DNA of 64,000 bases from Eledone cirrhosa. Taxonomy: Eukaryota. The notes beneath the pieces are model-generated. The model ran no database searches, had not been told where the DNA came from, and was given only the letters and a program-made list of their open reading frames with translations. A program made the translations under genes and the position numbers. The stretch lies in assembly GCA_964016885.1 (NCBI GenBank), contig OZ024759.1, positions 22,134,001-22,198,000 of the forward strand, given 5' to 3'. Shown here piece after piece: positions 7,766-61,306 of the stretch. Position 1 is the stretch's first letter. Each line of letters starts with the position of its first letter.

Positions 7766-7836
7766 GCTATTTGATGAGAACATGCCAGGGGGTTATTATG
7801 TAACCACTCTGGCATCTTTGAAATACGTATAATAGT
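7766..7836 (+). ncRNA. Type I hammerhead ribozyme motif (C3U variant)
   Basis: gctat-TTGATGA-[ATGCCAGGG GGTTA loop TAACC a CTCTGGCAT]-GAAA-TACGTA-TA-atagt; stem III is the palindrome ATACGTAT. Confidence 0.65.
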
Positions 7837-8100
7837 ATTATGTAATAAAATGATGATGTACGAATAAAACTGTCTCTCTTATTTATTATTTTGAAACTCT
7901 GGTTGATACTTTACCAAGAAAATCCTAAGGAATACAAATCATAGAGTGCTTTATGTCTGTTTACAAAAAAGTCAGTGGATTATAAGATCAACCAAGTTTC
8001 ATCAACTGAATAATATATATATATATGTGTGTGTGTGCGTATGTATATATATATATATATATATATATGTTTGTGTGTGTGTATGTATATATATATATAT

Positions 8101-8757
8101 CATCATCATCATCATCATCAACGTTTAACGTCCGTGTTCCACGTTTGCATGGGTTTGGACGGGGGTAGTCCCACTTGAGGCAAGAGTGATTGTCTTGCTC
8201 GCATAGGACTGTCTGGCAGGTTTTCTACAGTTGGATGCCCTTCCTAACACCAACCACATTTACAGTGTGGGTCTGGGAGGTTTTTACTGTGTTGCCTACA
8301 CGGCCACATTACAGCGTGGACTGTGTGTTTTTTTGTCGTGACACCTACACGATCTCATTTGTTTCGGCCTGGATGGCGCGGCACCAACATAACTTTACAT
8401 AGAACGGGGTGGTGTGGATGGGGTGGGGGTGGTGGTGGTGGGACGGGGTGTATTTTGTTAGAGATGCCTACTGGTTGGAGTAGGTTTTACTATATATTTA
8501 GGTAAGGCGGGTCTTCTCTGTTACTGAGTACCGCCAAAGGTCTCGGTCCAGTGACATTGTCTTGGAGAGGTGTAAGTGTGTGATGTCGGAGTTTATCAGC
8601 TCGTCCCAGGTTTTTCTAGGTCTGCCTATTCCGTGACTACCGTCTATCTTTATTGCCCTGCACTTTGTTATACAGCTATCGACTTTCATGCGCATCACGT
8701 GTCCATACCAACATAGCCTTCTCTCGAGTAAACAACATCTGATCCCTCTTATCTCTT
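8101..8757 (-). mobile_element. RTE-like LINE 3' fragment
   Basis: Encodes ...GRPRKTWDELI...DRDLWR; 3'UTR and (GAT)n tail; homologous to 11680-12325. Confidence 0.85.
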
Positions 8758-8879
8758 ATATATATATATATATATATATTAATATTTATGTACCTATGCA
8801 TTTGTATATAAATTGAAGTGTATGTGAAGTATTAATGTGGTGTGTTAAATAAATATACACATACACTTCAGGTCTGAAC

Positions 8880-9146
8880 TCAACGTAACCAATGACCCGC
8901 TGTTACTGCCTCCGTCTCATCCAGTTTACCCATCTCTCACTATTATGAGCAAAGGGGGATTCATATGCTAGCCACCTAGCCGTCCCGGGGGACAGAATAC
9001 AGAAGGCGTTTTTCCGGACAATGGTGAAGGAGACGCGCTGGAAGAGCTATTCCAGCTCATGAGGCTCACACCTGTGGGTAGCCAACTCCGTACCGTCGAT
9101 AGTGAGTAGGGAGGTGGTCCTAGGGCCAAGGACAACAGAAGTCTCC
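8880..9146 (-). mobile_element. CRE-like (RLE endonuclease) non-LTR retrotransposon C-terminal remnant
   Basis: 9145-8993 translates ETSVVLGPRTTSLL...EPHELE*LFQRVSFTIVRKNAFCIL, resembling the ET.G..GP...FQRLS..V.RGNA..IL C-terminus of CRE-type elements. Confidence 0.6.
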
Positions 9147-10634
9147 TAATTAAAAGTTATTTGTAGACATCTTAATGAAAGGATAAAATACTGAGATAAA
9201 ATATCAACTCAGAGAAGTAATTAAACATATTAAACCTAAACCAAAATTCAACTACACAATACATATATATATAAAATATACTTTTTATCATATTATATTG
9301 AAAGCAACCTTGACTTGGAGTATTTCAGAATCCATTATAGAAAACTCTGCTGTACAACTCAGTTCAGTTTTCTAGCATTTCCATCAACTACGTTGGCTTT
9401 TGAATTACCTCCCTTGAACATGAGTTATTTCCCTTATTTATCGGTCATGAGCTGTGAATTGGCAGTCGTTAGAACGTCGGATAGAATAATTCAAGGTATT
9501 TGTTCCGCCTCTCTCTGAGTTCCAATCCCGCCAAGGTCAACTTTGCCTTTCGTCCTTTCGCGGTCGATAAAAAAAAGTACCAGTTTAATCTTGGGGTCGA
9601 TTCTTCATCTATATCTCTTTCTCACTTCCTTTTTGTCACTCTCCCTATTCTTCTCTGGAAGAAATCTGCTGTATTCACACCTAGAGAGGAGATGGGCTCT
9701 GCCAGATTTTAAAATACCTTAGAAACGTTGTATGCCAATATGATGTCCGTACGACTCCCCCATGTTATATGTCACAGAATGTAATGTGTGATGAGAGAAA
9801 TTTACTATTTCAATAACCAACCGGTTGCTAAAGTAACCGAAGAATTAATTAGTTAGCTGACTAATAAAGGTTTCTGATTTAGGCACAAGGCCAACAATTT
9901 TGGGGGGAAGGAAAAGTCGATTAAATCTACCTCAGTGCATTACTGGTACTTTATTTTATCAACCTCATAAGGATGAAAGGCAAAGCTAAACTCGTAGGGA
10001 TTTGAACTCAGAACATAAAAGACCATAACTCTATGCTGCTAAACATATTGTCTGACACTCTACCGATTCTGCCAATCCACTGCCCTAAGCTGGCTAATAA
10101 TTGTTTCTACAAGGCCAGCAATTATCCCAGTGCATTACTGGTACTTTATTTATTCAACCCCTTAAGGATGAAAGGCAAAGTTAACCTCAGTTAATAATAA
10201 GTTCTATTTGAGGCAAAACATCAGTATTTCGGGAAGAAGGAAGTCGATTTAATCAACACTGATACTTTATCAGTACTGGTGCTTGATTTTATCGACTCTG
10301 GAATGTTGAAAGACAAAGCTGGCCTTAGTGGGATTTGAACAAAAAGTGCCATAACTAAATGCTACAAAGAACTTCATCTGATGCTCTAACAATTCTGCCA
10401 ATCCTCCTTCGTTTACTAGAAACTGAACTGGTGCCTGTGTTCTTATTGTCAGCAGCATGTCACTCCTAAAGTCTAACAACATATATATATGTGTGTGTGT
10501 ATATATATATATATAAATAGTGAAGTATATTTCTAAATAGTGAAGTATATATATGTATATACAGATACATATATATATATATTGAAATGCGCATAATAAA
10601 ATACATGGAACTCTTTTAACCATCTTTTGATCTT

Positions 10635-10670
<36 letters not shown>

Positions 10671-10891
10671 TATATATATATATACACATATATATATGTA
10701 TATATATATACACATATATATATATGTGTATATATATATGTGTATATATATGTGTGTATATATATATATGTATATACATACATATATAAATATGCGTATT
10801 TATATACATATATATATATAAATACACATATATATATGTATATATATATATATATATACACACATATATATATATGTATATATATATATAC

Positions 10892-10924
<33 letters not shown>

Positions 10925-58726: not shown

Positions 58727-59477
58727 AATATAAGTACATTTCTGATCTTAATTTAGTTAACTGTTCCTTTCCCCCAAATTGCTAGCATTAAACCAACATT
58801 AAAATTATTATTATTATTATTAGAGTGGTGGATTAACAGTGTCGTTAGATTGTCAGACAACATGCTTTAAGGCATAGGGTTACATCCCTTTTTGATCTGA
58901 GTTCAAATCCTGCCGATGTTAGCTTTGCCTTTCATCCTTAGGGGGGTTGATAAAATAAAGTAACAGTAATGCACTGGGGTTGATTTATTCAACTTTCCTC
59001 TTCCCCGAAATTGTTAGCCTTGTAGCTCAAGTTTCACTTGGAAAGGAAGTTGAGGGTGGGTGGAGAGAGAAGTGCTGTAACCCCCCCCCCCCTCCCCCTT
59101 CCTTCAGTACATTTGTTGAAAGGTGGGTGAATGTGGCAAAAGTGGCCCGTGTGAATGGGACTGCTCTGAGCATGCACCTGTAGGCTGGCTAATTTGAGGA
59201 GGAGAGGGATACCCTTTCCAGGTACCCTTGAAGTAGTATCAGGTGGTTCAGAATTGTTTGGGTACCTGAGTTGTCTCTGAGTAGGTATCCCCACTATTGG
59301 GGAACTCTGTTGTTTGCATTTTTATTGTTATATTTTTTACACGTTATATATGTAACCCCCCCCCCCCCACTGTCTATTGTGTTGTCCCCTATATGTAGGC
59401 CCTTGTGGCCAATAAAGAAATAATAATTATTATTAATGTACTAAAGTCCTATTTGTTCTTTGTTTTCTATTATCCAG

Positions 59478-59576
59478 GAGTGACAGCTCATTCAACTTCT
59501 TCATATTTTTCTTCGTATTCTTCTTTCAATTTTGCACATGTGTGATCATGTCATTGGGAATTCCTGGTTTCACAGT
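59478..59576 (+). CDS. SCAMP: SCAMP coding exon 7 (SDSSFNFFIFFFVFFFQFCTCVIMSLGIPGFT); gene continues past the window
   Basis: tatccag acceptor, GTAAGT donor at 59577, phase 2/2; RSDSSFNF motif and TM3. No convincing next exon found before 64000. Confidence 0.95.
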
Positions 59577-59589
59577 GTAAGTACACTTC

Positions 59590-59806
59590 TAATCTCTCCC
59601 TCTCTCTCTCACACACTCTCTCTTTAACACTTCTCCTCTCTCTCTCACACCACACTCCCTTTTAAGCTTCTCATTTATCTCTCTTTCACACACACACTCT
59701 CTTACACACTCTCTTTTATACTTCTCATCTCTCTCTCACACACACTCTCTTTTTTATACTTCTCATCTCTCTCTCTTTCTCTCTCACACACACTCTTTTA
59801 TACTTC

Positions 59807-59885
<79 letters not shown>

Positions 59886-60195
59886 TCTTTTATACTTCTC
59901 ATCTCTCTCACGCACTCTTTTACACTTCTCATCTCTCTCTCTCTTTCTCTCTCACACACACACTCTTTCATACTTCTCATCTCTCTCTCTCTTTCTCTCT
60001 CACACACACACTCTTTTATACTTCTCATCTCTCTCTCTCTTTCTCTCTCACACACACACTCTTTTATACTTCTCAATTCTCTCTCTCTCGCACACACTCT
60101 CTTTTACACTTCTCATCTCTCTCTCTCTTACACTTTTCATCTCTCTCTCTCTCTCTTACACTGTTCTCTCTTTCTCACTTCTGTTTCTCTCTCTT
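59590..60195. repeat. CT-rich compound minisatellite (cacacactctttttatacttctcatctctctct)
   Basis: Visible tandem units plus a pure (CT)n tract. Confidence 0.85.
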
Positions 60196-61248
60196 CAGGG
60201 GTCGATAAAATAAAGCACTAGTAATGCACTGGGGTCAATTTAATTTACTTTCCCTTCCCCCCAAAATGTTGGTCTTGTGCTTAAATCAGAAACCATTATT
60301 ATTATTATTATTATATTATAAAGGATGTGGATTGGCAGAATCGGTAGAGTGTCGGACAACATGCTTAGCGGCGTATAATTACGACCCTTTACAGTCTGAG
60401 TTCAAATCCCGCTGAGGTTAGCTTTGCCTTTCATCCTTACGGGGTCGATAAATAAAGTACCAGTAATGCACTGGGGTCGATTTAATCGATTTTCCCCTAC
60501 CCTTCAGATTGCTGACCTTGTGCCTAAAGTAGAAACCTTTATTATTATATTGTTTATTATTTTTGTTATTATACTGTTGTTGTTAATGTTATTGCTCTCA
60601 TCTTCCTCATTATCATAATTATCACCACTGTGTACTGAATGCTGTGTAGAATTAATGATGAGTTTCCTCTATTAACTACCTCGTTATTTTTCTAACGAAC
60701 CATCGTTGATAATTTGCTTGTGTGTTGTGTGTTTGTTTGTTTCAATGGTTTGTGAAAGTCACTTGTACTTCTCTACTGCAACCTAAACACTATGTACTTC
60801 TCTACTGCAACCTAAACACTATGTACAAAATATATACATCAAATGAAATCTCTTGCTGAATTCAGTCACCACACATATCTAGACACACACACACAGGCAC
60901 GTCTCTAAACACATATACACACACACTACTATATATATATATATTTAATATAGAAATGGCTTCTGATGATTTCTTCCAAATAAAACAGTTCTAGTCCTAT
61001 AGAAACCATTTCTATGTTAAATATTTATACTCTGCTATGTATTGAGTACCTTACTTACTGTGGTTACCCCCAATTGAACCCGGGATAAACTCTCTATATA
61101 TATATTTATTTAGGTTTGTTGGTTCACCACTGGATAGAACTTGAGAGTGGCTGACCGGGGTAGAAGCTGCTAAATGTTCAGTCGCCCTCATGTCTCTGAT
61201 TTTCAGCCCCATGGATTTTGTCTATTATATTCCTTTGTTATATTTCGA

Positions 61249-61306
61249 ATACTTGATGATGTCACTGGATTCATACTGAACCTGGTCACTGAAATGATCA
61301 GAGTAT
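61249..61306 (+). ncRNA. Degenerate hammerhead motif related to 13554-13611
   Basis: ATAC-TTGATGA-[tgtcactggattc..gaacctggtcact]-GAAA-TGATCA-GA-GTAT; C3U and U16.1G changes. Confidence 0.55.

Follow-up and report, generated by a model that had tools for sequence, protein, structure and literature searches.

Abundant type I hammerhead motifs in the Eledone cirrhosa genome as probable marks of Penelope-like elements, chiefly of the Hydra clade

Introduction

Penelope-like elements (PLEs) of the Hydra clade have been described by Craig et al. (2021, PMC8557442) as carrying one open reading frame (ORF) for a reverse transcriptase (RT) and a GIY-YIG endonuclease (EN), a sense-strand hammerhead ribozyme in the pseudo-long terminal repeat (pLTR), an inverted 5′ copy and an optional tail; the clade's motif list comprises RW, DKT, a CxCX5C linker, CxxC, CxH, no CCHH, a C-terminal endonuclease and (TA)n targets. 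Both that study and work on an anole PLE (PMC11167929) name the role of PLE hammerheads and the origin of tandem and inverted PLE ends as open questions. Here we analyse a 64,000-nucleotide stretch of the 3.0-Gb genome of Eledone cirrhosa (contig OZ024759.1, positions 22134001–22198000; hereafter the window), which contains a dispersed set of type I hammerhead motifs. We conclude, with a probability of roughly 0.78, that these motifs are pLTR hammerheads of PLEs, chiefly young Hydra-clade elements together with at least one protein-free 2-kb hitch-hiker, and that most genomic copies are short stubs, likely a record of the front part of an uncut element RNA whose copying into (TA)n was likely primed at two points.

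The elements behind three of the window's motif families (A, B and B2) share the Hydra organization, motif set and targets, and the ORF start aligns by eye with that of Hydra-1_Obim, an Octopus bimaculoides element listed with a short hammerhead in the supplement of PMC8557442. They differ from the published elements in several measures. The distance from core to GAA is 30–36 nt in the window's Hydra motifs, compared with about 12–26 nt by our own count from the published table; stem III is a perfect 8-nt palindrome rather than 9–10 nt with a central loop, a form that the published table also has for a Chara element; the tail measures about 90–100 nt rather than 30–40; the untranslated region (UTR) is 1–1.7 kb and the unit 3.3–3.9 kb, as against under 3 kb; and at least 66,380 exact motifs occur, as against a small number of published families.

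Three further systems are close. The minimal and variant hammerheads that Cervera and De la Pena (2014, PMC4209133) describe in metazoan PLEs are likewise type I motifs with palindromic stem III, an enlarged stem II and predicted activity as dimers; they too occur mostly as single truncated copies, with opposite-strand pairs 100–700 bp apart, and they include a covariant U3-A8 core. Stems II are longer here (up to 20 pairs, 61 nt), and counts are about seven times the 9,000 of Xenopus. PAc, a Poseidon element of Anolis (Frangieh et al. 2024, PMC11167929), has AT-rich targets, an uncut RNA as its main template, extension of both strands, protein-assisted cleavage and two internal RT start sites that define its tail, and we propose the same template and paired start sites for the present elements. 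PAc belongs to another clade, however, and its ribozyme overlaps the start codon, whereas the predicted cut lies 212 nt ahead of it here. Finally, a non-coding family of the window (G) resembles animal non-LTR retrozymes (Cervera and de la Pena 2020, PMC7229834; Li et al. 2026, 10.64898/2026.07.22.740005) in that every repeat contains a type I hammerhead and PLE enzymes would be needed in trans. Its unit of 2.0–2.1 kb compares with 51–972 bp for retrozymes, a range from a search up to period 1000 (the supplements of the preprint may list longer units), and family G forms no long arrays and has the full PLE footprint of tail, fold-back and TA flanks. Non-coding cargo between the pLTRs of Adineta Penelope (Arkhipova et al. 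2013, PMC3846280) is also similar, but G is an amplified family.

Octopus Hydra elements, pLTR hammerheads, palindromic stems III, fold-backs, tails, (TA)n targeting, U3-A8 cores and pLTR hitch-hikers are already published, and the differences from the published kind are of degree: the stem II region, tail length, copy number and a 2-kb non-coding family. A literature search that covered sources other than subscription papers and Repbase found neither a count nor a long-stem hammerhead for octopus; neither PMC8967140 nor a 2026 Octopus vulgaris repeat annotation mentions ribozymes in its main text.

Results

Hammerhead motifs in the window

A strict descriptor (exact CUGANGA and GAAA, a stem I paired over 4–8 bp, a closed stem II and, as stem III, a palindrome of 8 nt) identified six motifs, with cores at 13218, 13558, 13910, 14217 (minus strand), 25682 and 43210 and predicted cut sites after 13272, 13607, 13958, 14168 (minus strand), 25749 and 43289. 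Each has the type I order of CUGANGA, GAAA and NUH site with three helices. The scan reproduced exactly the six full-core motifs and the cut sites that a first-pass annotation of this DNA had proposed, and the core-to-GAA lengths are 30–61 nt; the annotation had described stems II as 30–60 nt long. In 150 block-wise dinucleotide shuffles the strict count averaged 0.007 (maximum 1), and the reversed and complemented window contained no strict motif. The annotation also listed seven variants or decayed copies; all are real family members, but the one at 22748 carries a family-wide U3-A8 core and is not simply decayed. Its density of about one motif per 5 kb included broken copies and a nested cluster; strict motifs occur once per 10.7 kb.

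The window motifs fall into about ten repeat families, in DNA that is AT-rich and dense in microsatellites. An Rfam search at E ≤ 1 gave no hammerhead among the best 150 of 235 matches, only low-scoring microRNA matches to microsatellites. Seven motifs are nested within 12.3–14.7 kb, where local density is inflated because the insertions are packed in a single (TA)n chain at 12330–14655. This chain holds six hammerhead-bearing insertions (H, A, E, B and a B2 pair) strung along (TA)n tracts, and every insertion used the TA run beside the preceding one.

Parent elements of families A, B and B2

Hydra-clade ORFs lie behind families A, B and B2, and a GIY-YIG ORF remnant lies behind the motif at 22748, which bears out the earlier suggestion that the motifs mark PLE ends. 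Among loci fetched from the genome (numbered with the prefix L), L021 has a pLTR-ORF-pLTR arrangement with the family A motif within both repeats, and direct hammerhead pairs surround an RT-EN ORF at spacings of 3.8 kb (L021), 3.9 kb (L132) and 3.3 kb (L135). All 12 long match pairs, which were chosen for 2–5 kb spacing, contain parts of the Hydra ORF. L129 retains an intact 799-aa ORF in which an RT with FDI, MGASDS and YRDD motifs is followed by a C-terminal GIY-YIG endonuclease (YFG...R...H...E...N). In family A the RW and DKT motifs read RLRW(T/I)A and SDKTNN, with a different third RWK residue; the N-terminus of B and B2 was seen incompletely. The cysteine motifs are CNCRIKNKC, CNLC and CLH in L129 and CNCRIKPNC, CKLC and CKH in L070, and there is no CCHH. 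Family B is linked to a Hydra-type endonuclease through a common UTR in L070, and family B2 in L124, where the endonuclease lies upstream of the B2 motif. Insertion in (TA)n, a hammerhead within the pLTR, an inverted 5′ copy and a tail are found in all three families. On this evidence A, B and B2 (cores 13218, 13910 and 14217/14548) are best read as pLTRs of young Hydra-clade PLEs. Naiad elements, which are reported with half cores, were ruled out as the origin of A, B, B2 and the 22748 family because of the C-terminal endonuclease.

Atlas neighbours of the L129 protein, at 0.96–0.98, carry GIY-YIG and RVT_1 annotations on part of the members, and a PDB sequence search with the intact L129 ORF returned nothing significant. 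Contig depth in one outside sequencing run is about 2 where the ORF starts and climbs to 4,687 by the ribozyme, and another organism carries an element about 90% alike. The Hydra ORF of L129 and its relatives also contains an asparagine-rich linker between RT and endonuclease (L129:3690-3870), which resembles the N-rich inserts described in Adineta Penelope.

In the window, family A is represented by a fold-back insertion in (TA)n at 13015–13316 (full elements in L021, L129, L132 and L135), with a minus arm that has the long end (13015–13205) and a plus arm that has the short end (13204–13316). The plus-strand hammerhead (13210–13280, predicted cut after 13272) has an 8-bp stem I, a 36-nt stem II region and AUGCGCAU as stem III; that of the minus arm (13145–13205, core 13202) has a stem I of only 3 bp at the junction and a weakened stem II. 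A further family A stub on the plus strand (10582–10640), missing from the first-pass annotation, has no core; its start lies within the ribozyme, 14 nt short of the cut site. Family B forms a plus-strand stub at 13832–14010 (core 13910, predicted cut after 13958), and 13 of its 40 best-scored copies are identical across 111 nt. The B2 fold-back at 14043–14651 has an intact core (14217) and a long end in its minus arm and a G12>A core (14548) and a short end in its plus arm; a repeat resembling a short interspersed nuclear element (about 14323–14485) sits inside its junction.

Insertion footprint

Copies end in (TA)n, as had been proposed from the window. Relative to the cut site, 3′ ends fall at about +45 or +134 in family A and at about +45 or +151 in family B. 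Among the first 100 matches, neighbours within 6 kb are arranged head-to-head in 28 cases, directly in 7 and tail-to-tail in 3, and 11 of 12 A and B pairs combine one long and one short arm. The 5′ starts cluster as well: 15 of 26 family A arms begin at −122 to −126, as do 7 of 18 alignments at −121 to −125 in loci not chosen for A, and 8 of 20 family B arms begin at −126 to −128. In family G, 9 of 10 copies start within about 3 nt of one another (near −160) after upstream sequence that is varied and mostly non-TA, and common starts are visible by eye in C, D and E too. Not one of the 59 alignments begins 3 nt or less from the cut site, a weak negative given that many B starts are alignment breaks at diverged stems II.

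Some TA-flanked pieces consist of the tail only, from short end to long end (L098:5764-5859, L137:956-1051, L164:3015-3110 and L161:4822-4933); they could come from priming between the two sites or from later insertion at the TA-like short end. Other TA-flanked hairpins or fold-backs lack a type I core (14687–14803, 25255–25440, 25914–26362, 28458–28701, 47573–48115, 63064–63180 and 63384–63616) and may be stubs of other PLE families or miniature inverted-repeat transposable elements (MITEs).

A 2-kb family without a protein

Family G appears in the window as a plus-strand stub (61107–61357) composed of a 35-nt inverted piece of the long end followed by the front of the pLTR. Its core at 61253 is broken (C3>U and U16.1>G) but intact in 9 other fetched copies. 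Many E and G copies continue past the long end into a common body, and the 12 loci fetched for this read-through comprise seven G-type units of 2.0–2.1 kb, one E-like unit of 2.8 kb and four that are cut or interrupted. The seven G-type loci have units of 1,982–2,095 nt between direct 350-nt repeats and are 78–85% alike. Their majority sequence contains no ORF longer than 111 codons and gave no tblastn match with either PLE protein, and gap lengths do not run in threes (61 of 347). The parent of family G is a non-autonomous 2-kb element with two pLTRs. The first-pass annotation had suggested non-autonomous, retrozyme-like elements; the former part holds for this family, but the tandem short-unit layout typical of retrozymes was not found. 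G has two repeats per copy, and no short-unit array (150–450, up to 972 bp) occurs in the window among the 150 of 167 entries listed. Identity to the repeats of the 2-kb unit is 82–90% for the G stub and about 70% for the pLTR of the plus-strand E stub (13436–13821, core 13558, predicted cut after 13607).

Other families

The element at 21906–22880 (plus strand) is a 5′-truncated PLE with a GIY-YIG remnant (22038–22346), a 3′ UTR and a variant hammerhead (core 22752, stem III AAUAUU). The remnant has a weak Pfam GIY-YIG match (E 0.008), a CX4CxxC linker (CTLANCPIC) and, inside the C-terminal GIY-YIG domain, a CCHH motif (CNKC, H, H), features that suggest a Neptune/Nematis-type PLE and fit both clades. 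Of the 11 fetched copies that span the core, 10 have UUGAUAA there, which points to a U3-A8 covariant core rather than simple decay; the window copy has in addition lost G12.

Families C, D and F share fixed 3′ ends in TA and fold-backs, that is, PLE-style ends. In the window all three lie on the plus strand. C (25558–25881) has its core at 25682, a 49-nt stem II region, an AUC triplet and a predicted cut after 25749; D (43153–43435) has its core at 43210, a 61-nt stem II region and a predicted cut after 43289; and F (7617–8012) has its core at 7771, a 42-nt stem II region and a 140-bp hairpin junction. The F core has C3>U in the window copy and is exact in 8 of 12 fetched loci, the window copy counted among the 12. 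Two 98% identical inverted copies of a 293-bp repeat (7318–7609 and 8082–8374) bracket this element. Exact patterns for C and D match the genome 39 and 259 times, respectively, and these families are older than A, B and B2. No direct pair a few kilobases apart was seen among the C matches or the 100 D matches listed, and the common upstream body of C, about 1 kb, contains no ORF.

Families H and I have short stems. The plus-strand H stub (12335–12515) has a short canonical hammerhead with a 4-bp stem II, an ACGU stem III and a core (12395) that lacks one base. The family I fold-back (16943–17138, plus strand) has the published Hydra shape, with a 4-bp stem II and a 10-nt stem III; its core at 16997 arises at the fold-back junction, where stem I is lost.

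Abundance

One pattern that covers families A, B and B2 has 33,358 + 33,022 = 66,380 exact genome matches (22 per Mb) and none in its control. In spot samples taken at round coordinates, strict motifs numbered 10 per 400 kb and 7 per 180 kb (17 in 580 kb), with none in controls, including 15 shuffles of the 400-kb sample; this extrapolates to about 88,000 motifs (51,000–141,000). Neighbouring DNA contains 15 strict motifs in 200 kb, and the window and the region around it are about three times richer than the genome average. For scale, the axolotl genome is roughly ten times larger. Among published hammerhead counts, PMC4209133 gives about 9,000 for Xenopus, and PMC7229834 gives 5,000 for mussel and 120,000 for axolotl.

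Ribozyme fold and predicted activity

Across 17 A/B variants the core is invariant except at N7, whereas stem II varies freely in sequence. Of the aligned cells, 97.6% are paired, with 36 two-sided changes, and all slid controls scored far lower; the variants are related sequences, and shuffle counts are not probabilities. These patterns argue that the hammerhead fold is under selection in the A/B group. The C at the fourth position of stem II is nearly invariant and unpaired. When no palindrome rule was imposed, 78 of the 92 distinct motifs recovered had a palindromic stem III, in many different sequences; the reversed control gave 1 hit. Because stem III is costly as a hairpin (+2.4 to +4.7 kcal/mol) and favourable as a two-copy self-duplex (−2.2 to −10.5 kcal/mol), a double hammerhead is predicted. 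Cleavage solely as a dimer is a modelled expectation, and self-cleavage at the listed sites is likewise predicted from sequence and folding; in PMC4209133, monomers were inactive and dimers weak.

Stem II regions of 12, 20 and 32 nt on the same base all occur within one Hydra-group subfamily (L039:2804-2834, L066:2641-2679 and L126:214-264), so a long stem II is not needed for a copy to exist. Further single hammerhead families occur at L023:4016 (minus), L118:2959 (plus), L133:4206 (minus) and L031:2405 (minus), with stems II of 47–59 nt, stems III of 8–12 nt and, in one case, a U3-A8 core.

Other repeats

The window also contains ORF fragments of non-LTR retrotransposons at 11186–11934 (plus), 24041–24520 (minus) and 45857–46231 (minus), which are RTE-like and CR1-like by their motifs; Pfam was blank for the two scanned. 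A 192-codon open frame at 61469–62047 (minus) is also blank in Pfam and has Tc1/mariner transposase-like motifs. Remnants of other PLE clades lie beside fetched loci at L225:1500-3790 (minus; an RT with C-terminal GIY-YIG) and L210:1730-2763 (minus). L210 also holds ORFs of a Ty3-like LTR element, and L213 a C2H2 zinc-finger exon.

Discussion

In the mechanism we favour, the RT-GIY-YIG protein would act as a dimer and nick both target strands, as we infer from the anole PLE work, and one cDNA would be primed at each of two internal sites. These cDNAs would mostly run off the 5′ end of the RNA and then be joined head to head. Stem III is not expected to fold in a single copy and would need a partner, either the other pLTR, 2–4 kb away, or another RNA on the protein dimer. 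The ensuing cleavage would take off the capped leader or free a unit-length RNA. Lone stubs and fold-backs are likely silent, and the arms of fold-backs would pair with each other.

Several observations weigh against this account. Pfam recognizes no family in the L129 ORF. None of the predicted hammerheads is the lowest-energy fold of its own sequence, and stems II of C and D are no better than shuffles (z −1.8 and −0.6). A cruder motif-based classifier of arm ends, which recognizes only some tail types, split 33 pairs into 18 that are mixed, 14 short/short and 1 long/long. The start points of families A and B open with TA-like letters, so target microhomology is also possible, and head-to-head junctions have been attributed to self-priming on an antisense template (PMC3846280). 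Family E is tied to the 2-kb unit solely through pLTR identity; nine extended loci of C, D and F gave no ORF or PLE protein match; and families H and I yielded no ORF or parent.

The same elements could have left these stubs in a simpler way, as ordinary 5′-truncated copies primed in the 3′ pLTR, with starts that cluster through annealing of TA-like or palindromic words to target or partner cDNA, or through antisense self-priming. The start of family A at a palindromic hexamer and of B at TAT would fit, as would the presence of long truncated copies of every size and the palindromic junctions and self-priming proposed in PMC3846280. We nevertheless regard ordinary truncation as possible rather than probable, since TA-like words closer to the ribozyme are used less, the start word of family G is fixed whatever precedes it, starts are also shared in C, D and E, and a Penelope pLTR contains an internal promoter (PMC2377424). 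A similar, rather doubtful standing falls to the circle model of de la Pena (PMC4209133 and PMC7229834), in which a long transcript is cut by the ribozymes in both of its pLTRs, ligation turns the unit into a circle that the RT copies, and the motif is essential for transposition, with a retrozyme-like version for the 2-kb element. All long copies do read through the cut site and over more than one unit, and the selected fold is in keeping with an essential motif, but tandem uncut transcripts account for the same copies, alignments do not start at the cut, the fetched loci contain no long tandem arrays, and ribozyme mutants left in vitro insertion unaffected in PMC11167929.

Two other explanations carry little or no weight. 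A MITE origin, with the fold-backs as DNA transposons that have TA targets and terminal inverted repeats and carry the motif by accident, is suggested by their mirror shape and TA flanks. Their arms end at different points, however, the junctions are variable and single arms frequent, and direct repeats of the same sequence flank RT-EN ORFs; this very improbable reading is refuted for A, B, B2 and G. Chance matches in AT-rich, microsatellite-rich DNA might be entertained for the AT-rich stems I and III of A and B, but the shuffle and pattern controls (6 against 0.007, 66,380 against 0 and 10 against 0) refute it and leave a negligible probability. More speculatively, and with small likelihood in our estimate, the perfect 8-nt palindrome could be a pairing switch that joins two template RNAs on the RT-endonuclease dimer; both target strands would thereby be primed, head-to-head insertions with one long and one short arm would result, and the switch would afterwards cut off the capped leader as feedback. 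The ORF-less pLTR elements of 2 kb would then be a long retrozyme class that makes 2-kb circles by the same switch.

More broadly, the motif load is high, with about 22 exact copies per Mb. The short fold-backs are easily mislabelled as MITEs and, if transcribed, would give long double-stranded RNA. The E. cirrhosa genome holds a young Hydra-clade ORF that is intact, along with its RNA signals, and tens of thousands of footprints of insertion, and these footprints predict the RNA start and both priming points, which makes the questions of ribozyme role and of the origin of PLE ends testable for a clade without biochemistry in the literature examined.

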